Source: Macrostomum lignano
Taxonomy: Eukaryota
DNA length: 41,760 bases
Assembly (NCBI GenBank): GCA_002269645.1
Contig: NIVC01002834.1
Coordinates: forward strand, 1-41,760
Reading direction: 5' to 3'
The notes below the pieces were generated by a model. That model did not search any database. It was given only the letters and a program-made list of their open reading frames with translations, and was not told the origin of the DNA. Position numbers and translations under genes: made by a program. Positions 15,185 through 37,899 of this stretch are shown here, one piece after another. The first letter of the stretch is position 1; each line of letters begins with the position of its first letter.

Positions 15185-16143
15185 GTGAGCTGAGCGAATA
15201 TAATTGCGGTACTTTAATTAATTCAGTACGGTACTATAGAAAGTTTATAACCGCCTGTCTCGTCCCAGCAACACCGTCATCATTTTATAGTCTAATCTAA
15301 ACCTTAGCTTATAGATACTGTGGCCACGCGACCACCACTCTACAATCACTATTTATATTTGCCTAGCCAAACCCTTCACAATAGTCCGCTACGGGTGTGG
15401 TGGGAAGGGCCATAGACAGTCACTGATTGGATTGGGTCACTGCTGCCTGCAGACCGCAGAGGGGGAGACAGCTGACTCTAAAGCAGGGGGGCACCCGTTA
15501 CGGTTTGGCTTATAATAGTTAGGTCACAGGCCTCAAACTGTTGACCAGAGGGGGCACACTGGCCACTTGAGAATACCGGACGAGTCGGCACAGACGCAGG
15601 CGGTCGTGTGTGTGTGTGTGTGTGCGACTGTCTGTCTGTCCACCTTTTATAAATTTTTCAATCCGAAGACGCGCCGCGGACAAAAGCCGCCTTCATCCGC
15701 GCATACATTATTTGTGCGATTCTGAGCGTGTGTGTGGGGCAGGGTGTCAAAGCCTGGATATTCAATGCAGAGCGGCATAAAGTGGGGGCCGCGACAGGTG
15801 GCTGGGTTGCGAAATCTCAGCTATGGGGAGCAATTGGGTGGGAAGTGTAGGTGCGCTTGAGTCCATCTCCCATCTTAGCTCCAACACACGCGCAAGAGCA
15901 CCCATCTGTTGTCCGGGACCGTTGCCTCTAAGCATTAACCGACCGTGCAGGGACAATTTTAATCTAGGGAGAGAGGGACAGAAGATTCGCTCAAATCGCT
16001 GCACTTGAGCAGTAATTCGAGCGCGAACTTTGCTCTCTTCACGCACGACCTCGCGATCTATAGCGATGCTTGCGGAGTCTGCATTCTCTCTCAGCTAAAC
16101 TTCCTGATGCTCATGACTGCCCACCGTGCGCTGACCTTTGCAG

Positions 16144-17055
16144 AGTACCTGAAGCTGCTCCACAGTCAGCTGAGCCCGCCGACACCGCAGCAGCAGCAGC
16201 TGGGATCTCAGGCTCCCGCAGCTCTGCCGCTCGCAGCCGAACACCACAGGTCCTTCGACTTGGCAGACGAGGCCTCCTTGTCGATGTCGCTGCTGCCCGA
16301 GGACCTCAGCCTGAAGGACGCCAGCAGGGAGGTGCAGCAGCAGCAACGGCAGCGACTCAAGGCAGAGCCACCAGAGGAGGAGCTGCAGGACGCGGCTGAC
16401 TCGATGACAGCAGCAGCAGCAGTACCAGCAGCAGCGAACAGCGAACTTCTTGACGATGACTACATCGTTGACGATGTTGTAGACGACGATGGTGCATCGG
16501 CGATGGCTGATGACGGCATGAAGCTGGAGGTGACGGAGGAGCTGCAGCAGCTGCCGGACACCAGCGATGAGTCGCCACAGATGCAGCAGCCGCAGTCCAT
16601 CAAGACGACGCCAGTCAGGAAGTCACTGGGCAAGAACAGCGGCTTCCAGGATGGCGTGACAGTCGGGTACACCTTCGATGCATTCTTCGTCAGCGACGGC
16701 CGATCGCGGAAGCGCAACTCGGCGCTGCAGTCGGGCGCGTCGGCAGCCTCGGGCTCGGTTGTCGGCGATCCGACCGACTCCGCTGGCGCCGACGCCAAGT
16801 GTCGGACTCGGTACACCTGCAATGAGTGCGGCAAGGACTACGCCACCTCCAGCAACCTCAGCCGGCACAAACAGACCCACCGGAGCCTATACAGCCAGCT
16901 GGCCAAGAAGTGTCCGCACTGCAGCAAGACCTACGTGTCCATGCCGGCGCTGTCCATGCACATCCTGACGCACAGCTTGAAGCACAAATGCCACATCTGC
17001 GGCAAAGCATTCAGCCGGCCTTGGCTGCTCAACGGCCACCTCAGGGCGCATACAG
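16144..17055 (+). CDS. scrt: scratch exon 2: PEDLSLK motif, Scratch domain, C2H2 fingers 1-3
   Basis: Acceptor ctgacctttgcag| is phase-compatible with exon 1 (RRL-E-YLK). Scratch box GYTFDAFFVSDGRSRKR at 16665-16715. Fingers CNECGKDYATSSNLSRHKQTH, CPHCSKTYVSMPALSMHILTH, CHICGKAFSRPWLLNGHLRAH. Donor ACAG|gtgagt. Confidence 0.93.
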
Positions 17056-17079
17056 GTGAGTCAGATTTATCTATTTATT

Positions 17080-18467
17080 CACTCCTTCAGATGTCACTCC
17101 TTCAGATGTCACTCCTTCAGATGTCACTCCTTCAGATGTCACTCCTTCAGATGTCACTCCTTCAGATGTCACTCCTTCAGATGTCACTCCTTCAGATGTC
17201 ACTCCTTCAGATGTCACTCCTTCAGATGTCACTCCTTCAGATGTCACTCCTTCAGATGTCACTCCTTCAGATGTCACTCCTTCAGATGTCACTCCTTCAG
17301 ATGTCACTCCTTCAGATGTCACTCCTTCAGATGTCACTCCTTCAGATGTCACTCCTTCAGATGTCACTCCTTCAGATGTCACTCCTTCAGATGTCACTCC
17401 TTCAGATGTCACTCCTTCAGATGTCACTCCTTCAGATGTCACTCCTTCAGATGTCACTCCTTCAGATGTCACTCCTTCAGATGTCACTCCTTCAGATGTC
17501 ACTCCTTCAGATGTCACTCCTTCAGATGTCACTCCTTCAGATGTCACTCCTTCAGATGTCACTCCTTCAGATGTCACTCCTTCAGATGTCACTCCTTCAG
17601 ATGTCACTCCTTCAGATGTCACTCCTTCAGATGTCACTCCTTCAGATGTCACTCCTTCAGATGTCACTCCTTCAGATGTCACTCCTTCAGATGTCACTCC
17701 TTCAGATGTCACTCCTTCAGATGTCACTCCTTCAGATGTCACTCCTTCAGATGTCACTCCTTCAGATGTCACTCCTTCAGATGTCACTCCTTCAGATGTC
17801 ACTCCTTCAGATGTCACTCCTTCAGATGTCACTCCTTCAGATGTCACTCCTTCAGATGTCACTCCTTCAGATGTCACTCCTTCAGATGTCACTCCTTCAG
17901 ATGTCACTCCTTCAGATGTCACTCCTTCAGATGTCACTCCTTCAGATGTCACTCCTTCAGATGTCACTCCTTCAGATGTCACTCCTTCAGATGTCACTCC
18001 TTCAGATGTCACTCCTTCAGATGTCACTCCTTCAGATGTCACTCCTTCAGATGTCACTCCTTCAGATGTCACTCCTTCAGATGTCACTCCTTCAGATGTC
18101 ACTCCTTCAGATGTCACTCCTTCAGATGTCACTCCTTCAGATGTCACTCCTTCAGATGTCACTCCTTCAGATGTCACTCCTTCAGATGTCACTCCTTCAG
18201 ATGTCACTCCTTCAGATGTCACTCCTTCAGATGTCACTCCTTCAGATGTCACTCCTTCAGATGTCAATCCTTCAGATGTCACTCCTTCAGATGTCACTCC
18301 TTCAGATGTCACTCCTTCAGATGTCACTCCTTCAGATGTCACTCCTTCAGATGTCACTCCTTCAGATGTCACTCCTTCAGATGTCACTCCTTCAGATGTC
18401 ACTCCTTCAGATGTCACTCCTTCAGATGTCACTCCTTCAGATGTCACTCCTTCAGATGTCACTCCTT
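17080..18467. repeat. 15-bp satellite (cactccttcagatgt), 92 full copies, filling scratch intron 2 (17056-18497)
   Basis: Near-perfect array; the only variant I saw is c>a at 18267. Confidence 0.97.
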
Positions 18468-18497
18468 TCTAACCAGAGAATCGGAACCGTTCCGCAG

Positions 18498-18775
18498 GTG
18501 AAAAGCCGTTCGGCTGCGCTCACTGCGGCAAGGCGTTCGCAGACCGGTCGAACCTGCGCGCCCACATGCAGACTCACTCGGCCGAGAAGCAGTTCCGGTG
18601 CTCAAAGTGCGACAAGTCGTTCGCACTGAAGTCTTACCTGAACAAGCACCAGGAGTCGGCCTGCCAGACCTCTGCCGGTTCCATCTCAGCCGACGCCATG
18701 ATGGACGCGGACTCCAGGGCCGACTCAGCAGAGTGCATGACTCCATCAGCAGCTCAAGCCGACAACTCGCAATGA
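18498..18775 (+). CDS. scrt: scratch exon 3: C2H2 fingers 4-5 and stop
   Basis: Acceptor ttccgcag|GT restores TGEKPFGCAHCGKAFADRSNLRAHMQTHS...CSKCDKSFALKSYLNKHQESAC, the Scratch-type finger array. TGA at 18773-18775. Confidence 0.95.
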
Positions 18776-21022
18776 TTGACCATCACTGCGTGTGAATGTG
18801 AATGTTTGTTTGTATGAAGCAAGCAGTGAAATTCACTGTGATAACAGCACCATGACATTAAAATTATATTATTAAACCACAGTTGCACACAAGGCGTCAA
18901 GTTTTAATTTCAGCTTCTCTTGCTTGTATATCAGCAGATGTCATTGTAAACATGATTTGCTTTTAAAGACACTTTGTAACTTTTTATGTTTATAAAAATT
19001 ACCATATTATACACAATGAGCCACTTTTATGTAAGCCATTTTATAAGTAAGCCTATATATGCTTCATTCTGCTAGCTTTAAAAGTACAAAGCAATTGTTA
19101 CAGTTTTATCTGCAGCATATATTGGCGGTTTTATCATATTTACGTACTAATTTATAAACTAATAAATTATTCAATCAGCGATTTGTAAATTTGTTTTTCT
19201 TATGTGCTTCAGATGACAAATACAAATTAGTAAACGAATACGTGAAGGTTTTAACGATCCAGTCGAATTTTAAACTATCTGCAATCTGTCTAGTGTAAGA
19301 AATTTAAACTCGCGCTTAGTTTTTGTTTTACTAATGTGTCCCATTCGATAAGAGGGGAAAGAGAAGACGGAAGCCAGCAACAAATTGAAGTTGCAGCAAA
19401 GACCAGATGGATTAAGATTTCATTTGCATGCAATTTACAATTTATCCCAAAGAGATGCTAAGAAACAGATAAGTTTCCCACTTCTCCGGTGGGAAGGCGA
19501 ACCCACAGGACATGTTGCTCAGAAATCAACATTTAAATCCCAATGAATTGAAGGCCGCACAAGGTTTTCTATTTGACAACTTTAATGCATAAAAAACTTG
19601 GTTCTCTCACAGGATGAGTACAGGCAATGGGGAATAGGGGGGAAATGAGAGGGGAAATAATCCCCTGGAATGGGCAGGATTATCCCAGATGTGCCAAGGT
19701 GCGAAGAAATCCGAGGCCGCAGGGGAGCTGAGAGGCTGTGTTTTTCTTGATGACGAGAATCGAGCCAGCAGGGGGGTTGCCATCAGGTTTCCGACACACC
19801 TGAGGGCGCAGCGCAGACTTCATCAGCCTCCCAACAGGCAAGAGCCGCAGCCCCAGAGGCCAGATCCAGGCCATATTGGCAAAAGCAAATTGAGTGTTTC
19901 TCGGGCCAACATCACAGAAATCGATTGCAGGCAGAGCCACGGAGAGAGCAGTCAACAGACCTGCTTGGAGAGACACAATCCTCCCCACCTGATGCTTACA
20001 AAGAAAACAGTTTTGCTTGATGAGCGAGCGGTCAACTCTCTTTTATATAGACAAGATTGGCTCACAGCCGCCCAGATAAAAAACTTTCCATAGGCTGAGT
20101 CAACATGCTGAAATTGAGTTCAGGCGGGCATTCAGTAATGGCCTTGGCAAAGTTGATACTCATGCAGCCTGGCATTATCCTCTTCAAGTCTGCCCCAGCC
20201 TCCCATGGTCAGTGCTGCATCTCCAGGGGATTCTCAGATCCAAAGCCGCGACAAAAAGGAACCGAATTTGTGCAGCAACACTGCGGGTAGCTTTCGGACA
20301 ATATAAATATATACACAAGGAGACTCCGTCTGCTGGGGATTAACAGATCCTCTTTCTCCTAGTAGCAGAAGAGAACTGCTCAGCCAGGCCCCCCCCAATC
20401 TTCTTATCCCTCTTTGCCATTCCAATTCCCTCAAGGACTCACCTTCTGTTGCAGGCAGGGGCAGGTGACTGCGATCCTGACCAGTTGTAGTAGCATCCTC
20501 TCTGGCTTAAGCCCGAAATCGCTCGCGTGGCTCTCGCAAGAAGTGAAGAGAGAGAGAGAGAGTTTGTAGAAATTTGAGAACTATAGTGCTCATTCTTATG
20601 CTCATCTGCTCATTTAAATTTCAATGCCATATGCAACACTTTCTGACACGCTGCAAGGCACAGATAGCTAATGATGAAAAACCCAAGCATCCGAACTGTT
20701 TTGTTCGCCCGTGCGTGAAAATTTTTAGCGGCAAAAATTTTTGGGGGCTTGGCTAATCTGAAGCTCCGATGCCCGTTGATTGCAGGGGGGGGGCGTGTCT
20801 CGGAGTCTGAGAAGCGGCGATCTGCGGCGGGGCACGCATCCGTACCAGAGGGGATAAAATCCCCCACTCCCACTCACACACACCAGCTGTCTAACAGACT
20901 GACCCCGGCTTGTGCCCATTTAGTTTCGAGCCTCTCTTTCGCTAACTTTCCCTTTATGTGGAGAAAAGACGGGGCGTCATCAATTTCGCGAGCTAGGGGG
21001 GGGGATTCTGTCACACGTGGTC

Positions 21023-21270
21023 AGTAGTATATACGATACAAAATACCCAGCAAACCATTCTCACCATTGCAAACAATTTAACCCTTTATCAGTGTGAAAT
21101 GGCCTGTTTCCCTTCATTTTCGCTCGTCTTCACTTCGCTCAACTCGCTTCGCTCATCCTCGCTTCATTTCGGTCAAACAGGCCATTTCACACTTACAACG
21201 ATTAATTCTTTTTGAATGGTGAGAACACGCTCTCGTCGTTCGCTTTGGTTTGCTGGGTATTTTGTATCGT
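21023..21270. repeat. Left-terminal fold-back palindrome
   Basis: Perfect arms 21033-21056/21247-21270 (24 bp), 21058-21068/21215-21225 (11 bp), 21091-21109/21175-21193 (19 bp). Pyrimidine-rich loop with ttcgctc-type repeats. Confidence 0.9.
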
Positions 21271-21360
21271 CAACGCTTCCAACTCTCTCCAACACACACA
21301 AACTTTCTAGAACCCGTCGCACGCGCCGCAGGCGCTAAGGGTCTTTTTCTGTTACTAAAA

Positions 21361-21675
21361 ATGACCCGAGTTTACACCTTTTCTGTTAGTGATACTTTTG
21401 AGACTGTTGCTAAAAATGCAGAGATAATAAAACAACATATTTTGAATGGAATAATTGATGAAGTTTATTTAAAATATGACGACAAGCACGACCTAAAACT
21501 TTATCCATTAGAGCTAGATGAGATGTATGATTTAGAACAAGAGGGCGAGTTAATATTTCAACTTGGAGATTATTTAAATTCGGATGATTGGGAGGTTAGA
21601 TCAACAGATTCCGAATCAACAAATAGTTCATATGAAACCAGTGATTCAGAGAATGAAAGTGAAATTTTTATGTGA
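21361..21675 (+). CDS. Hypothetical viral protein, acidic C-terminus (~104 aa)
   Basis: ATG after taaaa; ORF track; no recognisable family. Confidence 0.65.
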   Translation: MTRVYTFSVSDTFETVAKNAEIIKQHILNGIIDEVYLKYDDKHDLKLYPLELDEMYDLEQEGELIFQLGDYLNSDDWEVRSTDSESTNSSYETSDSENESEIFM

Positions 21676-21691
21676 AAAAAATATTTAAAAA

Positions 21692-21916
21692 ATGAACTAT
21701 TATTCTATAACAGAAACGACATTTATTGTGAAAAATATATATAAAAAAATGAAGGTAAACTATTCCTACATCGGAAATGTGCCGATTAATGAACTTAATG
21801 AAAATTTAAGTTTGATAACAGTTGAACAAATGTCAATAATAATATTAGTAACAATTATAGTAATAATATTGTTTTTGTTTGTTATAAAAAATTTACTACC
21901 ATGTTGTCTCAAGTAA
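21692..21916 (+). CDS. Small single-pass membrane protein (74 aa)
   Basis: Hydrophobic stretch MSIIILVTIIVIILFLFVI followed by PCC; taaaaaATG start. Confidence 0.6.
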   Translation: MNYYSITETTFIVKNIYKKMKVNYSYIGNVPINELNENLSLITVEQMSIIILVTIIVIILFLFVIKNLLPCCLK

Positions 21917-21926
21917 TTGTTCGAAC

Positions 21927-23077
21927 TTAGTTCGCTGATATTAGTTGGTTCTCATAAAACGAACCCAATATTTCTTCACCGTCCTTATCAGCAATTATAT
22001 AGGTTGTAGGATTGGTATTTAAAACTTTACTGATAGTAAATTTCTCACTTATCTTCCAATATCCTTTTCTTCCTTTTTCAAACTTATCTTTCCATTTATA
22101 GATATAAACAGAATCACCAACTTTAAAATCTTTAGTTTTCTTTTTTTCAAATTTTCCAAAAGTAACCCTAACATTTTCAGGATTGTTATAAGCTTGTTGA
22201 GGAGTCATCTTTATAGCTGAATGATATGAATTGTTATAATCTTTCACTACGTCTGGTAATATTTTTACCCATTTTTGGTTACCATTAAGACTAAACTGAA
22301 ACCATAATTTCTTACCTAAAGTTCTATTAAATCTTTCTATTAATGCGTTTTTACTCTCTCCATAAATAGAATAAATTTTATTAATATACTCCCCATTCGC
22401 GTCCTTTTTCCTTTCTTGTCCTTTTTCAAAATGATATAATTTATACATATGAGGATTGTAAAATTCTTTTCCTTCGTCAACACACAAACGTTCGCTTTTT
22501 TCTCCAAGACTTCTAAAAGCAGCAGCAACATCCTCTCCTTTTTTGGATTTCAAAGGAACAGCCCACGCGTATCGAGTAAAACCATCTAATATGGTTAAGA
22601 TATATTTATATCCTCTTTCGTTCGGCATAGACATTAAATCAGCATACCAAATTTCGTTCTTTTTGAAGTTCATGATTTTTCTATAAAATTTAGGTTTTCG
22701 ATATTCTTTATGAAGAATCTTTGCCTCATCAGAACTTAACCCACCGCCACTTAACAACAAACACTCAACACAATTATTTCCATGTTGATTATAATTAATT
22801 CCCAAACCAAATTTAACTTTAGACTGCAAAATCTTTTTAACCATCCACCTAGTTAATCTCTGACCTACTGATAATCCCTGCAAGTTATCTAATCCTTGAA
22901 TCATTTTTTGATCGGCTTCATGTTTTAATCTTAATGCTTCCTCGGGTGAGTTCTTATCAGCATCTCTGTATGCTAAGTCATGATAGTATGCTAACCAATC
23001 AATACCGTTAATGGGAATTGAATCGGCTTTTGGAGTATTATCAGGATTTAATCGGAGATCGAGTCGAGTCAACCCGG
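21927..23077 (-). CDS. Exon 2 of PLA2X-integrase gene: PLA2 catalytic helix plus retroviral-type (rve) DDE integrase
   Basis: PINGIDWLAYYHDLAY (parvovirus-type PLA2 HD), KVKFGLG, then WYADL / CVDEGKEF / IERFNRT DDE triad and Polinton-type C-terminus FKVGDSV...GSFYENQL. One base appears missing just after the splice junction. Confidence 0.9.
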
Positions 23078-23403
23078 CCTTTATACCTTTGCTTTCACAA
23101 AGGAGTAGACTGTGTCTTAAGCTATCATAAGGATTGACTAAGTCCTTCAAGCCCACCAGCGTACAGTCGTTGCATCTCAACCATACTCAAGTCATATGAG
23201 GTTAGGTTTTCGATTCACTCTTGCCCATATATTTATCTTCAAGCTTGTTACCGTTGGGAAGAGGAGTTACCTCTGTTCCTTTGTAATCTTTCGAAAACAA
23301 AGTGGTACTTGAAGCTTTAGGGGATTGAGTGAGCGGCTGGTGTTGCCACTAATAGTGACTAGCAGTAGCTTTGCATCTACCACTCGGGCACAGCTCGAGC
23401 TCC
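23078..23403 (-). ncRNA. Group I self-splicing intron, IC1-like, 326 nt, no internal ORF
   Basis: P1 exon CGGGU with IGS GCCCG (U.G at the splice site). P3 CACCAGC/GCUGGUG. P4 UCACUC/GAGUGA. P5a CUUCAAG/CUUGAAG. P5b CUUUGU/ACAAAG with GAAA loop. P6 AUC/GAU. P7 ACGACUG/CAGUCU within AAGACACAGUCU. P9.0 CU/AG. P9 CCUUUGU-GAAA-GCAAAGG. Terminal G at 23078. Excision restores YNFAG|PG. Confidence 0.9.
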
Positions 23404-23529
23404 ACCCGCGAAGTTGTAAGATGGGATGTGTAATTCATTTGTATACCTTCCAGTAGTAAAGATTGGTGGTAAGCTTGTTAATCCTTTTTGAACATCTAAC
23501 AATCCTCCTTCAAACACTATTTGGCTCAT
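23404..23529 (-). CDS. Exon 1 of PLA2X-integrase gene (42 codons, ends ELHIPSYNFAG)
   Basis: taaaaATG at 23529. ELHIPSYNFAG matches the start of the viral PLA2 Ca-binding loop (cf. LPGYxYLGPG). Confidence 0.88.
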
Positions 23530-24127
23530 TTTTAATAGCCTTAAAAATACATGAAAGCACCAATTGTTTTGCAAATTCTTCTATGGTTGGTTGTTTATCA
23601 TTTTTTGAAATATTATCTACAGCAACTAAGTATCTTTTATTTCTCCAATTTTCAGACTTTTTAATTTGTTCTTCATCGCGATAATCAAAAGATGAAGCAG
23701 GAATAAAATGGTCAACATGCAAAACACCAATATAATCTTTTGGCACATAATAATGTTTTGTGAAATTTAACCAATCAGTAAAGAATTCAATTGAGCAACC
23801 AAGGTAATCAACAGTATGATTATTTTTTCGAGCATTATTAGATTTTAGAAGAGAATATATTCTATTTCGTGTGTTTAAAATAAGTTTGTAATTTTCATCA
23901 GTTAATCTTCTTTCATTTTGATATTTTCTGCGCCTTTCTATATTATTTTTATCATATTCTTTTTTCCATTGAAGCTTATATTCACGATTTTTCTCATACC
24001 ATTCTTTATCATACTTTCTCTCACAAGGTTTGCAAATACTATAATATCTATTTTGATCTCTACGAAATCTAAAATAATCCAAAATTTTCTCTTCTTTACA
24101 TTTATTACAAATTTTTGTTTCATCCAT
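23510..24127 (-). CDS. Free-standing HNH endonuclease with N-terminal CxxC/CxxC module
   Basis: CNKC...CKPC, charged helical linker, YLGCS, and LHVDHFIPASSF...WRN...DNISKNDK. Resembles HNH nucleases common in large DNA viruses (from memory of the motif). Confidence 0.82.
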   Translation of the reverse strand: MDETKICNKCKEEKILDYFRFRRDQNRYYSICKPCERKYDKEWYEKNREYKLQWKKEYDKNNIERRRKYQNERRLTDENYKLILNTRNRIYSLLKSNNARKNNHTVDYLGCSIEFFTDWLNFTKHYYVPKDYIGVLHVDHFIPASSFDYRDEEQIKKSENWRNKRYLVAVDNISKNDKQPTIEEFAKQLVLSCIFKAIKNEPNSV

Positions 24128-24155
24128 TTTATAAAAAAATAAATTTAACAATTAA

Positions 24156-24821
24156 TTAAACACCAGTATGTCCAGCAGCTTTCGCAGCAGCTAAAACAAG
24201 TTTTCGTGGTGTTTTAAATCCATCACCAACAGCTAGTTTGTTATTTATAGAATTAACAATCCTTTTATACAAGCTGGTATTTTTAACAGCTCCTCCTAAC
24301 TCATCATAAAAAATTCTAGCACTTATTAATTCATCCCTAGTATATAAATCAGGGTTAAATTTTACCCTAGGGTTCATAACAATATTATATGCTCCACCCA
24401 ATTCTCTATATAGTTCATTTCGATTTTTATCAACTCCACCAATTCGATAATTATTATTACCTAAATCTGTCGCAGCAATACTAGCTGGTACTCTTGGATA
24501 TTGTTCCCGATCGCCCCGCTCTGCACGTCTAATCTCTGCAATTCTCAATTGTGCTTGATCAACATCATAAGCAGGCGGCTCATCTAAAAGTTCATCCTCT
24601 TTTGGCTCAGTATTTTTAGCAATTTTTTCCAGAAGATCTTTATCTGTTTTTTCTAGTTCACTAATTTTCCCAGTAATAGGATTAACAAAAGGAGCAGCAA
24701 ATCTTTCACCCGCTAATTGTATTCCTAACTTTCTTTTTTGTAAATTTCTAACAAAATCAGAATATCTTTGCTTCTCTTTATAAATCGCTAACTCTCCATC
24801 AACGTCCATAAATTGACTCAT
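24156..24821 (-). CDS. Hypothetical viral protein (221 aa), possibly a protease-processed core protein
   Basis: taaaaaATG start; C-terminal AVGDG|F resembles an adenain site; function inferred. Confidence 0.7.
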   Translation of the reverse strand: MSQFMDVDGELAIYKEKQRYSDFVRNLQKRKLGIQLAGERFAAPFVNPITGKISELEKTDKDLLEKIAKNTEPKEDELLDEPPAYDVDQAQLRIAEIRRAERGDREQYPRVPASIAATDLGNNNYRIGGVDKNRNELYRELGGAYNIVMNPRVKFNPDLYTRDELISARIFYDELGGAVKNTSLYKRIVNSINNKLAVGDGFKTPRKLVLAAAKAAGHTGV

Positions 24822-24855
24822 TTTTTAACATAAAAAACTTTTTTAACTTAAAAAA

Positions 24856-26326
24856 ATGGCTGAAACAAAAACTATGTGGAGTGATAAATTTCATTTCAAA
24901 AAGCACCGACAGTATATTAATGAGGTCAGAGCAAAAGATTTAAATTATACCCTACCAACAAGTGATAATTCAAATAACTTTACTACTGGAACGGTAACTT
25001 TTGACATCGGCGCAACCAACACTATATTGGATATGAAAAATGCGTTTTTCCGCGTTAGATGGTTGTATACTAGAAATGATGGAACTGCTCTTGCAGCCGG
25101 AGATATCGCAGATCGATCCGGAATAATAATAGAAAATGATTGGTTTTATAAATGTTTTTCCCAAGCTCAACTAACTGTTAATGGTGCTGAGGTTGAGACA
25201 TCATCAAACCCCGCAGAGATTAATGGAGTTTTGAAACATTTAAATTATACTTATTTATCAAAACAAGTTGGTGCTAATGTTGGGTGGATGCCGGATAAAG
25301 GTAACGGTCAAGCAGTAGTTTTACCTAATGTACAAAACGCAGCCGGTGCAGATACTGCAGCGCTAATTGTTTACCTTAATACAAACATAGTTCCAGTTGT
25401 AACCACTATGACTAATACAAAAGATATTAATACTGGTTTTATAGATCGTCAGAATAAATTCCCAGTCGCGGTTTTAACCACAGCAACAGCATATGAGCAG
25501 GACTTTTCAATCTTTCCACTATTTGGGTTTTTCTCACCAAATCGGGTATGGAAAGGATTAAAATTTGGGATACAGTTGCAAATATCTGGTGGATATCAGC
25601 CTAGGATACTTTATGGAACCTCAATTTCAACCGATATAGCAGTTCGTATAGATTCAATTCAATTAGTCGTACCAACTATTGAGGTAACAGCCCGCTTTTA
25701 AAACACATCGATAATCAGTTAACGCATGATCAGGAAATATTTTATTTGAATCGTAGACACTTTATGCGAACCATTAATAACAATCAGGATTCATTCCAGT
25801 GGCAAATACTGACATCAAAACGTCGGGTGAGATATATTTTTGTTTGGTTTAAGATAACAAATAGAAGGAGTAAAAGAGCAAATGGGGATTTATATTGGCT
25901 TCAATCGGGTGACATAGCAGCACAAGCAGCTACCGCAACAGACAACGCAGTTGCTGCAATTAACGAGTTTAATGTTCAGAATATCCGCCTGCAGGTTGAT
26001 GATCAATATTATCCGGTTAAAGATCCTCTTAATCTAAATATTGCAAATAATAATGTTAATGATTTTATAAAATATTATCAAGATTATGCCAAAAATGAAG
26101 CGTATGCCGTCCCTCAGTACACACCCACAGAGTTTCTAAACATTCATCCAGTGGTTGTTTATGATCTAACGGCACAGAAAGAAAACGTAGCCAATATTGG
26201 ACTTAATTATATGTTAGAGATTAATAAAACGGTAATCAGGCACTTGACGCCCACGTATTGTTTCTAGAGGAATATATGTCAATTGCTAAAGCTGATGGCA
26301 CGATTGTTCGGGACGCGCCGCTGTAA
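24856..26326 (+). CDS. Major capsid protein (double jelly-roll), broken by two -1 frameshifts (~25695, ~26230)
   Basis: FSQAQLTVNGAEVETSSNP, VRYIFVWF, IRLQVDDQYYP...LNIANN, HPVVVYDLTAQKE match Polinton MCP motifs. Frames rejoin as ...PLLKHIDNQL... and ...GNQALDAHVLFLEEY...DAPL*. Confidence 0.8.
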
Positions 26327-26377
26327 AATGAGTGCAGGTCTCCGACCGTCGCGCCTATTTAAATTATTTCTTTAAAA

Positions 26378-27172
26378 ATGGTAAAGGCAAAACACGATAA
26401 GATATTTCCAAATGATCCTTTTCTTTGTTTAGTAATCGGAGGATCAGGTAAAGGAAAAACACACTTTGTTTACGATTTATTAACAACAGATGGAATGTTA
26501 GACTATAATAATTTAATAATTTATACTAATAAACCTAGAATAAAATATTATGAATTTCTTAAACATGGATTAAAAAACAAATTAAAAAAAGATGTCTTGT
26601 TTAGAATGTTAAGAGCATATGAGCAATATGAGGATGATGACGAACCGCGATTTAATCTAGCAGACATTGAGGATTTATGTAAAACAATGGCACAACAGCC
26701 AGAAAACATCACCGATCGCCCCGAAGGGTCGCGGACTTCGTCCGATCGCGCCCCAACTGTTAGAGTATCAACCCGATTAGCCTATGATCAAATTCCAAAA
26801 CATGATAAAACACTAATTATTTTTGATGATTGTATTAATGACGGTGATCAAGAATTACAAAAGGAAATTTTTGTTAGTGGTAGAGGAGATGGAATTGGAG
26901 CTTTTTATCTTACTCAATCCTTTAGAGAATTAGAATCGATTATAAAAAAGAATGCTAGCTGTTGTGTAATGTTTGATTTAGATAACTATGATCTACAAAA
27001 TATTCACGCTAGATTTAATCCCGGATTGGATGCAAAACCATTTAAAAGTATGTGTAAAAAAATTTGGGATGATAGCCAATACAAACATATTTATATCAAT
27101 CCGAGGTTAGAAAGGAAACATAGAATTTTAACAAATTTGATAAAAGAAGATAATGAGGAAGAAGAGACATAG
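26378..27172 (+). CDS. A32/FtsK-like DNA packaging ATPase
   Basis: Walker A GGSGKGKT, Walker B LIIFDD, SGRG and LTQS motifs. Confidence 0.92.
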   Translation: MVKAKHDKIFPNDPFLCLVIGGSGKGKTHFVYDLLTTDGMLDYNNLIIYTNKPRIKYYEFLKHGLKNKLKKDVLFRMLRAYEQYEDDDEPRFNLADIEDLCKTMAQQPENITDRPEGSRTSSDRAPTVRVSTRLAYDQIPKHDKTLIIFDDCINDGDQELQKEIFVSGRGDGIGAFYLTQSFRELESIIKKNASCCVMFDLDNYDLQNIHARFNPGLDAKPFKSMCKKIWDDSQYKHIYINPRLERKHRILTNLIKEDNEEEET

Positions 27173-27211
27173 CACGCGTACCTTCGGTACGATTAATTTC
27201 CCACTATAAAA

Positions 27212-27991
27212 ATGACTACAAATTTAAATACTATAAAACAATTGGTAGATCGAACTAATTCAAAATTTAGTACAACATTACAGTTTATAATGACAACCAG
27301 CGAGCAACGGATTCAATTGCGCGATCCATTACAACTTGATCAAAGCCTAAGTTATCAAATAGGTTTAATTCTATTTTCGGTTTTCAACATGCCTCAATTA
27401 ATTAATGCAACAAATAATCAATTTAGATATTCTAAAGATTCCGGAGCCAATTGGACAACATTTAGCGTTAACCCAGGAGCGTATAGCTATACTGATTTGA
27501 ATGCTTATATAGAAGGAGAATTAACAACTAATGGTGATTGGGTAGCAGGAGCAATTGTTATAGGTGTTGATTTACCGTCTGGCAGATTCACACTATCACT
27601 AGGATCCGGATATCAGGTTGATTTCACAATTGCAAATTCACTCAGAACCATACTTGGATTTAATTCCCGAATAGTTACCACATCAAGCACCGGTGATACA
27701 GTTGGAAATATAGAGGGTGGAGTAAATACAATTAATATAACAACCGACATTTCAAACGGTGGTTATATAACAGAATAACGGAGTTTTGGTTCAACGTGGA
27801 ATTATTTATTCAATCCCATTTCTTGCTGTTCCAATTGGAGAGAAAATGATTGTTGCACCCAAACCCCAATATATTATCCTTTAAATCAATATGTTCAATC
27901 AATTTATATTAGGATTGTAGATGAAAGCGATAGATTAATAAGTTTTGGTGGGCAGTCAATAACAATAATTTTACGTATAAAACAGGTTTAA
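27212..27991 (+). CDS. Minor capsid (penton) protein, two frameshifts near 27775 and 27868
   Basis: YQIGL..FSVFN...INATNNQFRY, PGAYSYTDLN, and C-terminal IYYPL...IRIVDESDRLISFGGQSITIILRIK after frame correction. Confidence 0.78.
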
Positions 27992-28004
27992 TCCTATAGT
28001 AAAA

Positions 28005-28187
28005 ATGGGTAATAATAATAATAATAATTTAATAAAAAAACAATCAGAAAAAGTTAAAAAAGCTGAAGATAATTACGAACTAGAACTAGCAAAATTAAGG
28101 CAGTTACAAGCTGATAAAATAAGAAAGGAATTGTTAAAACCCACACCTACGAAACTAACTAAAACCAAGAGTTTTTCAGGAACATAA
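28005..28187 (+). CDS. Small basic protein (60 aa) with N-terminal MG
   Basis: gtaaaaATG start; fills the gap between penton and protease. Confidence 0.55.
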   Translation: MGNNNNNNLIKKQSEKVKKAEDNYELELAKLRQLQADKIRKELLKPTPTKLTKTKSFSGT

Positions 28188-28188
28188 A

Positions 28189-28623
28189 ATGACCATGACG
28201 TGGGATGATTTTAAACAAAGATATGGAACGGACACAACAAGCAATATCGAATTAACAAATTGGGCGAGGCAGTTAAAAATAAAACCATTCAGATGTGTTA
28301 TGCGAGATGAGATCAAAGACTTACCACAATATGGATCTTACATTGTTAATATTGAAACAACAAAAGAAAATGGTGTTCATTGGTCAGCAGTTTATTCAAA
28401 ACCAAAACTTGTTTATTTTTTTGATTCATACGCGCTTCCTCCGTTACAGGAAATAAAAGACAAATTTAATCATACTAAAAATCGTTTATGTGGAGATCAT
28501 CACGAACAATTTCAAACATTTGATAAAAGTTATTGCGGGCAAGCGGCGTTGTATTTTTTATATCGACTTTCGAATGAAGCTCGTGTAAACCCCGAAGATC
28601 ATTTGCCGATGGCACGATTTTAG
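28189..28623 (+). CDS. Adenain/Ulp1-like cysteine protease
   Basis: Catalytic order GVHW, FFDSY, QFQ, YCG (His-Asp-Gln-Cys). Confidence 0.9.
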   Translation: MTMTWDDFKQRYGTDTTSNIELTNWARQLKIKPFRCVMRDEIKDLPQYGSYIVNIETTKENGVHWSAVYSKPKLVYFFDSYALPPLQEIKDKFNHTKNRLCGDHHEQFQTFDKSYCGQAALYFLYRLSNEARVNPEDHLPMARF

Positions 28624-28647
28624 ACTCTATAAAATAGACAGTAAAAA

Positions 28648-30630
28648 ATGTTATTTTCTGGAACACCCTCATGGAACGGAACAACAAGTAGTGGTGGTGG
28701 TGGCACATCTGGTGGAATAAGTGTTACATTTGGAGATAATCGATATATTAATGAAGATGAAGGTTATAAAAAAAGTGAAGTTGATACTAAACTAAATTTA
28801 AAAAGAAATGTTGCAGATTCCTATACCAAAACTCAAATAGATGATTCACTAAATCTGAAACGGAACGTAGCCGATTCCTATACCAAAACCGAAGTTGATA
28901 ATTCATTAAATTTAAAACGCAATACAGCCGATTCTTATACCAAAACAGAGGTTGATAATTCATTAAATTTAAAACGCAATACAGCCGATTCTTATACCAA
29001 AACCGAAGTTGATAATTCATTAAATTTGAAACGGAACGTAGCCGATTCTTATACCAAAACCGAAGTTGATAATGGATTAAATTTAAAAAGAGATGTAACT
29101 GATTCTTATTCTCGAACTGATTCTGATTCACGTTATGTTCAAACCACCGCAACCGGAAACCTAGATATGAGCAACAACCGAATTATAAATGTTTCAATTA
29201 CAACTAGTGATTCAGTGGTTGATAAGAACTATGTCGATAATCAAGTTGCCACTCGTAGTGGTAATATTAATATGAATAATTTTAAATTAACAAATTTATT
29301 ATTTGGAACAGATAACGCAGACTCGATAACTCTAGGCCAAGTAAACGAGCGAGCTAATGCAACCGACGCCGATATTTTTACCACGCCGCTTACATCAAAT
29401 ACTTCAAATCCTGATGTTGTTCTTACAGCATCTGAAAATGGCAACACAGCTTTTCGAGTTGGAGATGGAAGCCTTGCGACACAATGGTCACCAAATACCG
29501 GAACCACAACCAATATGGAAATTCAATTTGAATTTTTAGGTTATAATAGAAGAATATTTGAATTAAGAATTACAGGCAGTGAAACAATTGAGATACCCTC
29601 GGGTGGTCGGTTCGCGCAAAAAATGTTGCTACCGATTCATGGACGACATTAACTACGTCGGGATCACCAGTTCAAGCAACATCATTTGCTCTATCTAATT
29701 TAACGACTAATTTTTGGAAATATTATAGCGTATTCTTCCCAACTGGTGGTACCGGTACACAACCTATCGAGGTTCGTCAAATACAATTATTTGAACACCG
29801 TGTTGAAATTCAAGATCTTAATTGGCCAACTCAAATACTTTCTGCAGTTCCGCGAGCGTACGTAGATCAGCTAGCTACTCCAACATCAAATGGTAGAATG
29901 TCTGGAAGCGATAAAAATAAATTGGATGGAATACCTGCTATTGATGCGGCCTTGTTCGAACCAGTAATTTGCAATTGGTCTGGATATCAAAATCCAACAA
30001 CCGCCGGAGATATATATCCAGTCGGTTCTTTAATTGGTGACGCTTCTTATATCGATTATCAAAACGGCGCTAGAATTACTCGTGAAACTTCTGGAGTAAG
30101 TGGTGCTTTACAATTCAATTTCACACATTTTCAAAATATATCTGCGTCTTTCTTTTTCCGAGTTGCTAATGCTACAGGAGATGGTGCAGATGCGGTTTGG
30201 TTTTATGCATACTGTCACCAACGTCCAACATCGGAATTTGGATCTGGATTATCAACCGACGCCGGATTGATAGTTTTTGCTAGTGAGTGGCATGATAAAT
30301 TTGGACTTTGGAGTTAAAAAAAATCAGACGGATCAAGCGCGCGATGTTAATACTGACGCGGATCAAACTGTAGCCTATGCAAATATTGATAAATCGAATT
30401 CATACATACAATGTTGCTGGTGATTCTTATACCCTCATTGGCAGAACGTTTTCACATATGATAGTGGAACTTGGGGAACTTTGATAAATCTGGAACCTTA
30501 TGGGTTTTGGTGCTCGAACTGGAGGATCGGATGCTGCACATTTTATTCGTGGCGCAGTTTGTGGTAGTACGTCGTTTGGTTATGTTTTTCCTCTACTGCT
30601 TATTTGGAAAAACCTCCTACTCAAATATAA
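28648..30630 (+). CDS. Fiber/spike-like protein with 20-aa repeats and putative carbohydrate-binding modules; several frameshifts
   Basis: About 5 copies of KTEVDNSLNLKRNxADSYT (60-bp DNA repeat, ~28770-29110). NLDMSNNRIINV / NINMNNFKLTNL. GRMSGSDKNKLDGI. GDGADAVWF...GFGARTGG..H.I (L-lectin-like). Fragments 28648-29652, 29898-30317, 30500-30630. Confidence 0.7.
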
Positions 30631-30646
30631 AATATTTCTATATAAA

Positions 30647-30973
30647 ATGGCTTTTAGTAGAACTCCATCGATGCGGCAAAATAATGTTATTATTCCTATT
30701 CCTAAACAAGAATCAAATATAAAAACATTCAAATCTCATACCAAATTTTTATTTAGTACTGTAAATGTTCAGGATAATAAGAAGCTTCAAGAATTAATTA
30801 AGTTATTAAAAAATCATATTATACTTCAAGAGTTTTGGAAAATAGGATTTAAATGGGAGAAAAAAGAAAGAATAACTCCAATACAATACCTATTAAGCTC
30901 CGGGCAAATCCCCAAAGAGCGTGGGGAATTCATTTTGGTGCTATTAAAAATAGACGAGAATGTCGGTATCTGA
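30647..30973 (+). CDS. Hypothetical viral protein (~108 aa)
   Basis: taaaATG at 30647 within track ORF 30500..30973. Confidence 0.6.
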   Translation: MAFSRTPSMRQNNVIIPIPKQESNIKTFKSHTKFLFSTVNVQDNKKLQELIKLLKNHIILQEFWKIGFKWEKKERITPIQYLLSSGQIPKERGEFILVLLKIDENVGI

Positions 30974-31614
30974 AGCAGATAAATGGGAACGCGACCGGTT
31001 CAACCAACGTAAAGGTCAGATGTTAAGTAATGTTGATCGTATTAACTATGATTATGATTTATATGCTAAAAAAGTAAGAAGAGTTTCAAACCATATAAGA
31101 AATATGGACTTTTTCAATATTGGATTTGGAAGCTTATCAATGTTATGTGTAATCGTTTTAGGTATTTTACAATCTATTCCAACTCTTAATTTATCTCAAT
31201 TATTTTTAGGTATTTCAATTGGCTCAATATCAGGTTTTGAATTGATCAGGAACTTATCAATACTTTTAGCAATTAAATTATATCTTAAAAAAAGAAAGGA
31301 AAAATATAAATCTTTAAGAGATGTTGCAACAATATAAAAATCAATTATATTTATATGTGCAAAAAATATTGGATGACGGAGAGATAACGATTCATGAATT
31401 ATCAACCGCGGTTGAATTATATGAAAAATATTTAAAAGATAGAAATAGAATTTTAGATGTTGAAACTTTTACCGATATGGAATTAAAAGAGTTGAGACTC
31501 GATAAACCCAAAGCTCCACCGATAGAAACATTAGGCATTTACGAACCTGAAACTATTGCTACTGGGGCACAAAGCCCGCGGTCAGGAAGTGCTGTAGAAC
31601 TTCAGGTTGTTTAG
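30960..31614 (+). CDS. Two-TM membrane protein of a type common in Polintons (one frameshift ~31330)
   Basis: Basic run, two hydrophobic helices, KK-rich segment, then KILDDGEITIHEL...YEKY. ORFs 30960..31337 and 31321..31614 overlap. Confidence 0.62.
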
Positions 31615-32094
31615 TTTTTCTAATGCATATGTTATATATTCTTCCCAAAGTGGTAACTCTCTTCTGATCCTAGGTTTAAATTTTTTATCAATACATAAAA
31701 ATTCCAATGACTTTTTCAATAACATTTCGTTAGGTATGTTACCTATCCTTATAAACTTTGTATTCTCTCGAATAAGAAAATTGAAATAATATCCAACTAA
31801 AATTAAAATCCTTTCGGAGTCTTTCGAACTTAATCCCTTTCCTTTATTTAAATGGAAAAAGTTATTATATAAATAAACATTATTTCCGGGAATTAAAATT
31901 GGATCAGAAATGTCTCTTGTAAGATTTCTTAAAATTGTGTTTTTAAAATAGTAATATGAGTTTTCAATCTTTTTTGTTTTTTCAAATTGATATATTTTAG
32001 AACATGAATAACACATATGATATATATCTCCGTTTGCTGTTTGCCCTCTGTGCATAGTCACATTACATTTATTACAAACATAAATGTCTTTCAT
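31582..32094 (-). CDS. Hypothetical protein with N-terminal zinc ribbon (170 aa)
   Basis: CNKC-x17-CYSC; aaaaaATG start. Confidence 0.65.
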   Translation of the reverse strand: MKDIYVCNKCNVTMHRGQTANGDIYHMCYSCSKIYQFEKTKKIENSYYYFKNTILRNLTRDISDPILIPGNNVYLYNNFFHLNKGKGLSSKDSERILILVGYYFNFLIRENTKFIRIGNIPNEMLLKKSLEFLCIDKKFKPRIRRELPLWEEYITYALEKLNNLKFYSTS

Positions 32095-32120
32095 TTTTTT
32101 GTTATTTTTTTAGATTAAAA

Positions 32121-32453
32121 ATGGAGAGCTGGTTCAAAACCGATTCTAATGTGATTAATTATCTCACACCCAATATGTTGGAGAATAAAGAATATAATAT
32201 TGTATGTTTGAGACAGGTTAAATTTATTGGGCTTCAATCAATATTTTTACAATTAGATGGGCAAAAAATTTTATGTCTAAGCGGAGATGATGTTAAAAAT
32301 TTTCCTGTTTTAGTTATTAATAAACCTAAAGCGTTTGTTATGAAATACTGCAACGAGGGTGGATTGCAATTTAAACTAAAACAAACAAATAATAAAAAGA
32401 GTGATAGGACTGTAAAATTGGCGGCTGTTTGGGAGGATGACGACGAAGACTAA
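32121..32453 (+). CDS. Hypothetical viral protein (110 aa), acidic tail WEDDDED
   Basis: taaaaATG start; ORF track. Confidence 0.65.
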   Translation: MESWFKTDSNVINYLTPNMLENKEYNIVCLRQVKFIGLQSIFLQLDGQKILCLSGDDVKNFPVLVINKPKAFVMKYCNEGGLQFKLKQTNNKKSDRTVKLAAVWEDDDED

Positions 32454-32468
32454 ATTTTTTATAAGAAA

Positions 32469-32927
32469 ATGGATACGATAAAAATCCTTATCACTAAAGA
32501 GCGTGAACTTAATGATATTAATAAAAAAATAAATATAATTATATCTCAGAAATATCATGAGTATGGGGACGATATGTTTCCCATCCGATATGAGATAGAT
32601 AAAAGAAAACGTTTTTTAAGACAAGATATTGTTTATGCTGAAATAGTAATTGAAATTGAAATAGATAGATTGGTTAGAAAAATAAAAAAACTTAGGAAAA
32701 AAATAAAGGATTGTTTAAGTTACCCTGACGACTGCGAGGAAAATTGGCCTTCAATATTATATGAAATCGAAATGGATATTATGCTTAAACAATTACATGC
32801 TTTAGTTTTTTTCCGCCCGAAGGGTCGCGGATTTTATCCGATAAGTAATTTTTCTGTTAATCTCTTCCAGTTATTCAAGACTTTTTCCTTATTTAATTTT
32901 TTAAGTTCTTTTGGAAATGTTGAATAA
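32469..32927 (+). CDS. Hypothetical basic/coiled-coil protein; 3' end overlaps pPolB tail antisense
   Basis: ORF track; true end may be earlier (hairpin element at 32813-32840). Confidence 0.5.
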   Translation: MDTIKILITKERELNDINKKINIIISQKYHEYGDDMFPIRYEIDKRKRFLRQDIVYAEIVIEIEIDRLVRKIKKLRKKIKDCLSYPDDCEENWPSILYEIEMDIMLKQLHALVFFRPKGRGFYPISNFSVNLFQLFKTFSLFNFLSSFGNVE

Positions 32928-35900
32928 TAATTATCTATATCTTTTTCATATTCTAGAAATGTATTATATTCACAATCACATTCGGATTCACAATCACAAT
33001 CGTAATAATAATTATTTATTGCCGCTTTGTATTCATTATATTTACTTATTATATCTTCTTTTTGTTTTTTATCTTTTATCATATTTTTTATCTCTTCTTT
33101 TAAACCATATGGATATGTTTTAATTTTATCATCTAAATATCTTTTATCATCAAATGGACTTAATGTTTTTTTATCTGTCTCGATGACAAACATCTGATGC
33201 TTATCTGAATTTAATCGATATTGTGGAGCATGATAATTTTCAATTGTATTAAGGTAATCTAAAAGTACGTTTTTATAATCATCAAATGTTATCTTTTTTA
33301 CTGCTGCTCTTGATACCCCTTTTATTTTTTTTACCTCTCCCTCCTGTCCTAAAACCTTAAATGCATAGCATTTTGATCTTATTGCTATAAACTCGGTTAT
33401 GATTTTGCTATTTAATTCATCTTTCATTTTAAGTACAACTTTTTTATTTTGATCTGATTTTAAAGGATGGTTATCCGGATAGTCGGATGTGTCCAATGTA
33501 TCCTTAATTTTTTCCATATCTTTATAGACATCGAACCTTTGGTTCGCGGCTGCCCGATCTCTGTTTCAACCTTAAATACCAAACTGTCGGTGTCTGCATA
33601 TATTGGATAGTTATCTGGCCATGTTTTATTTATAACATCATAATAATATTCATACATTACCAGCTTTGCATAATCTAAAACAACCATTCCAATAAATATT
33701 GGTTTAAGAAATTTTGTTGTTTTATTTCTCATATGAATACCCATAAAGTTATCATCAAATTTTATAAAGTCTTTAAAGTTAGGTTTTGAGAAATATTTCT
33801 TTGCTTTATCAATATCCTTTTCTAAATGGAATTGGGTTCTATCTCTAATATTTTCAACCGTTTTTCCATAAAAAGCATTATTCATTAATTTCCAATAATC
33901 TTTCTCAAAATTTGTTTTTGACATCTGTCTCTGATTTGAATTAAAGTCAATATATTTAGCTAACCAATCTTCCTCAATAAACGATATTGTTCGATGTACT
34001 TTAGACACTTTTAATCCCTGCTTTTCATAAAATTGTAGAAGCTTATAATGCACTACATAGTTTTTCTTATCATGTAAATTTAATATTAATTTTTTTGTTG
34101 CTAGATGTTTTGCATTATCTACTTTAAGATAATCTTTTTGTGTTTGTGATAAATCATCTTCATTAACTGAACAATGCTCTGGAGCTAAAGGATATTTATA
34201 TGTTTTTGCTTTTGCTTCCCGAGTATATTGCAAATCCACCTCTACAATACAGCCCCTTCCTTCGGGAATATTTTTGTAATAATCGGGGTCATCTTCCCAT
34301 TGGAAATCAGCTATTGGTAATTTTTGTTTCATACAACCACCGTATAAATTGTTTGCATCTAGATATAATACATATGATGATTTTTCTTTTTTATTATAAT
34401 TTGGTAGATATTTATTATTTACTTTAGTATATCTATCTCCTAGTACACCCGAGAATCCGCCGCGAATTCCTCTCTCAATCATTAACAACATATCATGATC
34501 AGTTAGTAAATCAATCTTAACATCTGTATGTTTCAAACCACAAGCCCATGTTAATCCCGGTGCACTGAAACAATATGCGGGATCAATTTTAAAATTCTCA
34601 TATGTATGATTCCTAAAGTTTTCAAATGCATCAGCTAATAGGAGAACATCTGCTTTAAGATATAGATTATGATAATCTTTAAATGTTTTACAATTAAAGT
34701 ATTTCCATACTTTTTGAGCGTGTTCATAATCCGATTCACTTATGTTTGTTTGTGATAATGTTGAATAAAACTTTTCAATTGGGGGTAATTCGGTATGAAA
34801 AAATACGTCTTCAGATGTTACATATTCATATGGGTAGATGCCCTTACGAGTTAATAGCATTAGTTCTTCCTCGGATAGTTTTTCCTTTTTGAAACGATTC
34901 AATAGTATTGGAAAGTTTTTCTTTACTATTTCTAAATCCCATGGTTTTGGAACTAATGATGAAACAACATTTGCTAAAGATGTTGATAAGAATCTCAAGG
35001 AATCTAGAAAAACTAGATGGGAGTATTTCTTACCATATGTTATTGATATGTAATTTTCTGATGTTTTAGGTAATATATTTATTTCATATTCATCCTTTCC
35101 TAAATGAAGCAATTCTCGAACTAAGAAATGAAAATCATATCCGGAACCATTATGAAAAAATACTGGTATTTCCTTACATCCTTTTCCTTCTTTTGCATTA
35201 CATGATCTACATGCTGCCCCTCGATAATTTCCGTTAGATGACAATGTTCTCGTATCTTATTTTTCTTACTTAAATATCTTTTGCACATAAAACAATTTGT
35301 TGCATTTTTATAATTGTCTCTATCCTTATTTGTCATATTAATATTTTTTGATAATTTATCATATTGATTTTGAATATATTCAAATACATTTACTAATGAT
35401 TCTGCCATGTGCTTAGCTGCATCATTACCGTGGTAAGTAATCATCCTTGATTTAAATATATGATCAGCTACGGAGTGTACATATATACAATAACTATTCG
35501 GAAACTGTTGTGCAATTTTTTTGTGCATTCACCGTCCCGTAGGGTCGCATGCTTTGCATGACCGTCATCAGATGCCGTCTGTGATTCTTTTAAGGGAACA
35601 TTTGTTGCTTCAAAATCAGCATATATTACTATTGGTTTTTTAACTGCCATATAATGTTGTTGGAACTTTAGGGTTGCATCTTCAGATGCTGGCATTATAG
35701 CATTAGTAAATTTGTGATCTAAACAAAATCGTTGGTGGTTTTTAAGAGCTGTTTCATCCTTTTTAAATGTAAAACAATTTCTACATAGTGGATATCTATT
35801 TCTATTTTCTCTTAAAAAAGAACTAATATCTTTTATGTATATATAATGTGTTTCATTTTCGCGCTGCATGTACAAAAGATCGATTTGATCTGGTGCTGTT

Positions 35901-36568: not shown

Positions 36569-36618
36569 TTGTTTAAAATATTCTTTATAATTTGTATTTA
36601 TATCTATATCTATATATA

Positions 36619-37889: not shown

Positions 37890-37899
37890 TTTTATATTG

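Follow-up and report, generated by a model that had tools for sequence, protein, structure and literature searches.

The window, meaning the whole 41,760-nucleotide stretch of contig NIVC01002834.1 (Macrostomum lignano assembly GCA_002269645.1) analysed here, carries a Polinton/adintovirus-like element with a gene for a phospholipase-A2-like (PLA2) domain fused to an integrase. This gene is interrupted on the minus strand, at 23403-23078, by a group I intron of a type that we call N1. Its paired (P) and joining (J) segments point to a core that is probably of viral-family origin, in a periphery shared with IC1-type sister introns at the same site. The segments are the following.

23078..23403, minus strand: group I intron N1, with its 5' splice site following U23404 and G23078 as structural terminal G; RF00028 E 3.3e-9; exon positions via intronless alleles, P9.0 register common to the relatives N2 and L410 (introduced below)
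23385..23408, minus strand: P1 (5 bp, U.G at the splice site) and the 14-nucleotide 5' guide extension (23403-23390)
23345..23384, minus strand: P2 (8 bp) and a short P2.1 (6 bp), common to the IC1-type sisters; 40/43 identical to one sister
23327..23342, minus strand: 5' strand of P3, J3/4 CGC (23335-23333) and 5' strand of P4; gapless alignment to the viral family, G invariant
23236..23316, minus strand: P5abc extension, common to the IC1-type sisters; 70/81 identical to C type and 65/81 to H type; one clade with the sisters, 100/100
23171..23220, minus strand: 3' strand of P4, P6, P6a, P6b and J6/7 (GCA)
23107..23170, minus strand: P7 (G-site pair G23168-C23108), J7/3, 3' strand of P3, P8 and J8/7 (C23114 = position 305)
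23079..23105, minus strand: P9.0 and one P9 hairpin capped by a GAAA loop, P9.1 and P9.2 being absent; viral intron L508 has an almost identical P9
23070..23077, minus strand: P1-target repeat (23077-23072), then two extra bases (23071-23070), the last of them a G; present in each of the 24 N1 copies

Fold of the intron core

The core segments named in the original prediction lie on the minus strand where it had placed them. P4 pairs UCACUC (23332-23327) with GAGUGA (23220-23215) at 6/6 positions, and P6 pairs AUC (23214-23212) with GAU (23176-23174) at 3/3, with GCA (23173-23171) as J6/7. P1 has U.G at the 5' splice site and 5/5 pairs, and the codon boundary there is the sisters' insertion point. 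The flanking helices had been described as standard, and they do all pair (P3 7/7, P7 6/6, as well as P5, P8 and P9), but P3 and P7 are not those of a standard IC1 intron: P3 is without its last pair, with the P3-P4 link shorter by one base, and P7 (A-C-GACUG/CAGUCU) differs from both sister types. A P3-P9 core with a G-C guanosine site in P7 is present. When folded in isolation, the P4-P6 domain reaches a z of -3.38 (1/200 shuffles equally good) with pair probabilities of 0.9-1.0 for P4 and 0.87-0.95 for P6, the latter falling to 0.34-0.42 in the fold of the whole intron.

Copies and sister introns in the genome

Searched as a P6-J6/7 pattern, the non-canonical core occurs at 27 places in the 764-Mb genome, with 0 matches in the control; 24 of these are N1 and three are truncated, decayed copies of a type N2. 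The shared P5a motif occurs at 106 genomic places (control 0), at least 79 of them beyond the 27 N1/N2 copies, and as the pattern was exact, this count is a lower bound. Those examined among the P5a-motif introns other than N1/N2 are canonical and IC1-type. At the 171 loci examined, which overlap each other and are not 171 separate places, the non-N loci carry the canonical C type, plus six intronless alleles. Of the 79 distinct C-type sequences (e.g., L025, L030, L055, L075), 56 end in A and not in a terminal G, at the very position that is G in the others, with the exon in frame and the P7 G-C site intact. The H-type intron is found at the same site in a related element and holds an Eco47II-like nuclease open reading frame (ORF) in its P2.1 loop.

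The N1 letters are identical in contigs of 4/4 independent runs. Twelve N1 introns are identical to each other, so the conservation of N1 partly reflects recent copying. In the L024 copy, an insertion of 825 bases (1804-2628) with inverted-looking ends lies near P3'/P8. The N2 introns (L460-L462; G000:C45, C114, C2521) lack the 5' end, have a decayed exon 2 and lie within a segment of ~5 kb that is present three times; they keep CGC, AUC, P6a and N1's 5' P4 letters at pairs 5 and 6. As most of their differences break pairs, they were set aside as covariation evidence.

A search for an N1-type intronless allele by an exon-2 motif yielded none, its 28 matches being 24 N1, one C-type and three unrelated repeats (control 25, the motif is not rare). 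The N1 signature was also sought elsewhere: four viral-contig patterns returned chance matches only, while one prokaryote pattern, blastn against phages and a single-protein locus search each returned 0.

The viral intron family and core covariation

A model built from 16 copies was used to search 75 metagenome/viral loci of the PLA2-integrase gene family, and two more introns at the same exon site were found, L389, which is canonical, and L410. The latter, from a metagenome Polinton-like contig, has a canonical P4 yet N1's short P3-P4 link, P7 and P9.0 register. These two PLA2-site introns (L410:2190-2500 and L389:1-176) lie in unrelated metagenome contigs, and the start of protein P0003 resembles the read-through of such an intron's P9.

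A search with a pattern for this P7 gave 119 viral and 10 prokaryote stretches, and among the 80 viral stretches listed 22 carry labels of giant-virus metagenome-assembled genomes. From 108 distinct matches 65 were parsed, 61 remained after removal of the window copy and three mis-parses, and in 57 of these P3 and P4 lie three bases apart. The central G of J3/4 (N-G-N) is found in every one of the 57, and N1 aligns to this family gapless across P3-J3/4-P4. P6 covaries freely within the family and shows a wide range of pair types, two relatives having A-U at pair 1 and ten having U-A at pair 2. The viral/prokaryote members (L473-L601) often occur several per contig, and P4 is bulged or mismatched in L523, L541 and L475; judging by translation, we take the viral host genes to be giant-virus capsid and RNA polymerase genes.

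Selection on structure, as the original prediction had supposed, is borne out by the alignment of 33 family members, where 99.2% of cells pair against 81.8% in shuffles (0/500 as high) and at most 45.5% when slid. The check it had proposed, covariation in homologous introns, gave two-sided changes at 6/6 P4 pairs and 3/3 P6 pairs, with P4 pairs 5 and 6 varying only via two N1-lineage rows and P7 invariant through the way the sequences were picked. Two further covariations join P4 to the rest of the core: a C-G at pair 2 accompanies G259 in 5/5 relatives and is otherwise found in 0/56, and a C-G at pair 4 accompanies C305 of J8/7 in 3/3 relatives and otherwise in 0/58. N1 obeys both. A Watson-Crick pair of the J3/4 G with position 271 was considered and dropped, since 271 is A in 16/58 relatives. 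Private to N1 are U-A at P4 pair 5 (G-C in 57/57 relatives), C-G at P4 pair 6 (G.U in 55/57) and C as the third J3/4 base (0/57). Background to these comparisons are the base-level rules of the core triples. According to the available text of PMC4705646, the J6/7-P4 and J3/4-P6 triples make the essential triple helix of the core.

The odd core is thereby mostly explained as the core that is usual in a viral intron family of wide distribution, plus a few private compensated changes. The suspicion of a lineage distinct from IC1 is supported, as the core carries the viral-family signature. IC1 was, however, the wrong baseline for it, and the notion that a core of IC1 type was rewritten on the spot, with novel triples, is not supported, because the N-G-N J3/4, the variable P6 and the pairings of C-G with G259 and with C305 all occur in the viral family.

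Detection by standard models

In a 1.6-kb scan RF00028 matches 23387-23086 at 42.9 bits (E 3.3e-9), below the gathering score of 50, and a whole-window Rfam scan at the cut-offs gave no match at all. The expectation that such an intron could evade standard models agrees with a 34-kb Rfam scan, in which 0/3 N1 copies were reported versus 7/7 full-length canonical sisters (60-88 bits). L410 was unreported in a 64-kb scan and scored 52 bits in a 0.8-kb scan; in a scan of 15 loci two viral-family members reached 30-34 bits, several loci had no match and others lay above the cut-off. Because Rfam misses the N1 variant, surveys undercount the viral N-G-N family. According to GISSD (PMC2238919), the Rfam seed is without any IE intron, in keeping with the low score of N1.

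Origin of core and periphery

The best local scores divide the intron by domain. P2-P2.1 scores 77/80 to a sister versus 42 to any other, and the best match of P5abc is also to the sisters (129/162). The viral family gives the best match for P3-P4 (40 vs 22), for P6-P7 and for P7'-P9 (61 vs 25). In the P5abc tree N groups with the sisters (support 100/98 with 53 rows and 100/100 with 30 rows), while in the core tree it groups with L531, L490 and L410 (98/93, 53 rows) or with L531 and L490 (89/93, 30 rows). Forcing the N core to the sisters costs 24 log units, with a p-value of 0.048 in the approximately unbiased test (p-AU). Since P2/P2.1 and P5abc are common to the IC1 sisters, N1 is likely a mosaic, to judge from sequence comparison, of a viral-family core and an IC1-sister periphery. 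Exchange between intron types does occur, as six N1 copies bear an H-type P5b/c (77/81).

Splice sites and product

P9.0 covaries, being C-G in N1 and N2 and U-A in L410, and this fixes the structural terminal G at 23078. The codon after that G is in the exon 2 frame in N2, L410 and the sisters. All 24 N1 copies hold two additional bases, 23071-23070, due to which ligation at G23078 reaches a stop two codons later, while ligation at G23070 is in frame and gives a product two codons shorter than the intronless alleles. The 14-nucleotide guide pairs at -11.4 kcal/mol with the exon after G23078 and at -10.8 kcal/mol after G23070. It is longer than the guides of the sisters, and its best pairing among the 22 exon variants listed is with the N1 exon.

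The N1 splice joint was sought in contigs of four runs, three of them presumed RNA, and none was found, which decides nothing either way; the one joint seen in run contigs matches an intronless-type allele in its letters and could stem from DNA. No dataset that contains the intron is catalogued as RNA. Spliceosomal removal via the GT/AG end letters was rejected, as inspection gave no in-frame product. We place productive use of the downstream G23070 slightly ahead of a null product, and this is the weakest of our inferences. A more elaborate model would have an active ribozyme splice mRNA from an animal nuclear locus although its P4 pair 5 is not the G-C that is invariant elsewhere, and use its guide twice: ligation at G23078, re-docking on the P1-target repeat six bases downstream and a finish at G23070. 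We regard this model as doubtful; such a two-step reuse of the guide would be the natural counterpart of laboratory trans-excision splicing.

Interpretation and alternative explanations

We consider it probable that N1 is a group I intron with a viral-family core in the PLA2-integrase gene of an animal Polinton, that its periphery was recombined from IC1 sisters and that it folds and splices normally. This reading rests on the helices, on family membership by sequence, on the covariation and on the shared periphery. The core would derive from the widespread viral family, with its three-base P3-P4 link with central G, variable P6 and A-C-GACUG P7, and not from IC1, while recombination with the IC1-type sisters inserted there likely exchanged P2/P2.1 and P5abc. 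The triple helix may have been kept through matched changes, i.e., P4 pair 2 C-G with G259 and pair 4 C-G with C305, both of which occur in relatives, and the lineage would have gained compensated changes of its own, which affect P4 pairs 5 and 6 as well as the third J3/4 base. The N1 RNA is predicted to fold to a normal group I core and to carry out the two usual transesterifications. Spread among element copies may proceed by gene conversion, or by homing driven by the free-standing nuclease cassette upstream.

Several points weigh against this reading. The rejection in the AU test is borderline, and the core branch is unstarred in the smaller tree. P8 is ambiguous, with the H sister scoring slightly better than any family member (52 vs 47). 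As the family was gathered with the P7 pattern, similarity in segments containing P7 is built in. The covarying relatives are related and represent few independent events, the three cases of P4 pair 4 with C305 coming from two related contigs. P5abc may have been exchanged between N and the sisters in either direction. As for activity, the guide-exon duplexes outdo shuffles by a small margin only (p 0.07 and 0.04), U-A at P4 pair 5 may be damaging because the relatives have G-C in 57/57, and several single N1 copies have pair-breaking changes, L024 also carrying its 825-base insertion.

Some of these observations would suit an intron of the same ancestry that is now a non-productive passenger, its fold having been selected in an active ancestor, its product being null or splicing absent, with conversion spreading the intron and other copies supplying integrase. 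This appears rather unlikely, and it is the alternative that survives best. It would account for the stop met after ligation at the structural terminal G 23078 set by P9.0, the twelve identical introns, the private breaking changes in L017, L023 and L024, the truncated and decayed N2 relatives and the company of several different upstream cassettes. However, within N1 the first P5 pair shows a two-sided C-G/U-A change (6/24 copies) and pairing survives five one-sided changes, 18/24 copies have an exon 2 open over 379 codons or more, and the guide is longer than that of the sisters and best matched, among the exon variants listed, to the N1 exon.

An IC1 intron, sister to C and H, in which P3, P4, P6, P6a and P7 were rewritten in place with new triples, seems improbable to us. 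The insertion site is indeed the same, P2/P2.1, P5abc and in part P8 are held in common, 12/26 core pairs differ from the H sister on both sides with none broken (p about 6e-6), and the tree gives no clean separation of AAU-type from N-G-N-type cores. Still, such rewriting demands an independent gain of the three-base spacing, the central G, the P7 type, the P9.0 register and a near-viral P9; L410 has N1's link, P7 and P9.0 traits at the same site with a canonical P4, and the p-AU of the core tree points the same way. That the helices are chance or an assembly artefact in a decayed repeat, as the Rfam score under the cut-off and the split genes of this element copy might suggest, is hardly credible and is refuted by the 27 genomic copies with 0 control matches, the same letters in 4/4 independent runs and the covariation.

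Host gene, element and nuclease cassettes

The features surrounding the probably viral-derived intron are listed here.

23404..23529, minus strand: exon 1 of the phospholipase-A2-like/integrase gene (42 codons); translation matches intronless alleles
21927..23069, minus strand: exon 2 frame, coding for the remainder of the PLA2-like domain and, fused to it, an integrase of retroviral type; Pfam rve E 8.8e-8, with Phospholip_A2_4 under the cut-off at E 0.0094
23510..24127, minus strand: free-standing HNH/endonuclease-VII-like ORF directly upstream of the host gene, with PHROGs matches to endonuclease VII (E 1.7e-11) and HNH (E 5.3e-8)
21023..38979, no strand assigned: Polinton/adintovirus-like element of about 18 kb; AGTAGT-type ends, low GC, integrase (Pfam rve), Pox_A32 ATPase
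16107..18780 (approximate), plus strand: Scratch-family zinc-finger gene, a neighbouring host gene; named matches all animal Scratch, the best being a flatworm protein at 99% identity

The intron is inserted in the glycine-rich motif of the phospholipase-A2-like domain, and PLA2-integrase fusions occur among 366 homologues. The element codes for a retroviral-type integrase and a packaging ATPase (Pfam rve, Pox_A32). Its candidate split ORFs for a protein-primed PolB and a capsid gave no relevant Pfam or PHROGs match, and the polymerase-like and capsid-like labels are our assumption from motifs; these frames (window 32834-36568 and 24856-26267, respectively) are split into several ORFs, by decay or assembly error. 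The element ends (38713-38979 and 21023-21270) are long inverted repeats with perfect arms of 25-27 bases, and AGTAGT recurs at 38713. The Scratch gene lies ~2 kb from the element on the same contig and has only animal named relatives, so the element is integrated in an animal nuclear genome. Long host tandem repeats occupy window positions 12460-13900 and 17080-18470, one of which (17-base unit) fills an intron of the Scratch gene.

Upstream of the PLA2 gene is a slot in which nuclease cassettes replace one another, either one of several HNH alleles or a PD-(D/E)XK protein like that of the H intron. In a set of 110 distinct loci, HNH of the window type occurs only with N1 (10/10), and 9/19 N1 loci carry something else; a strict tie of N1 to one nuclease is ruled out by these differing cassettes. 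In the upstream slot of L410 there is an ORF that we presume to be GIY-YIG-like. The Eco47II-like PD-(D/E)XK nuclease is found both inside the H-type P2.1 loop (L169:787-1473) and free-standing upstream of the PLA2 gene (L001, L006, L022, L053), and its distribution is possibly a snapshot of a free nuclease entering an intron.

Comparison with known systems

In the available texts of PMC3679873 and PMC8395846, group I introns of the nucleus are confined to the rRNA genes of microbial eukaryotes, and a 2025 database, as far as its text is available (PMC11835236), lists animal group I introns that are mostly mitochondrial and come from three basal groups. The group I introns of Polinton-like viruses come so far from protists only, in the available part of PMC12220804. 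Our literature searches, which left subscription papers outside their coverage, found nothing published on group I introns either in Polintons of animals or in their nuclear protein genes, the accessible text of PMC8502044 included. The main interest of the present case would be that a nuclear protein gene of an animal carries such introns, apparently unreported. At least 106 places in one animal genome bear the intron motif, in a protein gene wherever examined, and it is now directly testable whether an animal cell splices a group I intron out of an mRNA of the polymerase II type.

N1 resembles giant-virus introns, namely those of Bodo saltans virus (BsV), as described in the available text of PMC5871332, and of the IMG/VR family (L473-L591), in the three-base P3-P4 link with central G, the P7, the ~100-nucleotide P5 extension, the variable P6, protein-gene hosts and homing nucleases nearby or internal. 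Unlike them, it sits in the Polinton PLA2 gene of an animal genome and has private P4 pairs 5 and 6, a private third J3/4 base and an IC1-sister periphery, BsV being compared by its description only. The available part of PMC12220804 likewise describes group I introns in integrated Polinton-like elements, with RF00028 matches in protists (44 in Rhodomonas, 2 in Desmodesmus and 5 rows for Paulinella, where the text gives 53). Unlike the present analysis, that survey, in the same part, is protist-only, keeps matches above the Rfam cut-off only and contains no core analysis, and the cryptophyte host gene is a different one.

An intron that has no ORF of its own, lies in a conserved motif and is directly preceded by a nuclease gene (HNH upstream of N1, GIY-YIG-like upstream of L410) is reminiscent of collaborative homing, in which, according to the available text of PMC11296320, a free-standing nuclease accompanies an ORF-less intron. 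The cassette of our loci is, in contrast, swappable and not tied to one intron type. The N-G-N J3/4 and the P7 type may resemble those of IE cores. N1 would differ from IE, where P13 forms between a long P2.1 and P9.1, in having a 6-bp hairpin as P2.1 and neither P9.1 nor P13.

With IC1 introns (Tetrahymena type; here the C and H sisters) N1 shares P2, P2.1, P5abc with its A-rich bulge and the internal-loop skeleton of P6, together with what we presume to be tetraloop-receptor-like motifs. Unlike in IC1, J3/4 is not AAU, P3 is one pair short of the eight of IC1, P6 does not begin with G.U followed by C-G, as it does in the sisters and the Rfam consensus, and P7 is different. Further, where IC1 has P9 extensions and P13 (available text of PMC9223047), N1 has a single P9 hairpin five bases from P9.0 and no P9.1, P9.2 or P13. 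With three core types at one site and a shared periphery, these introns form a natural module-swap series for the contacts of the triple helix.
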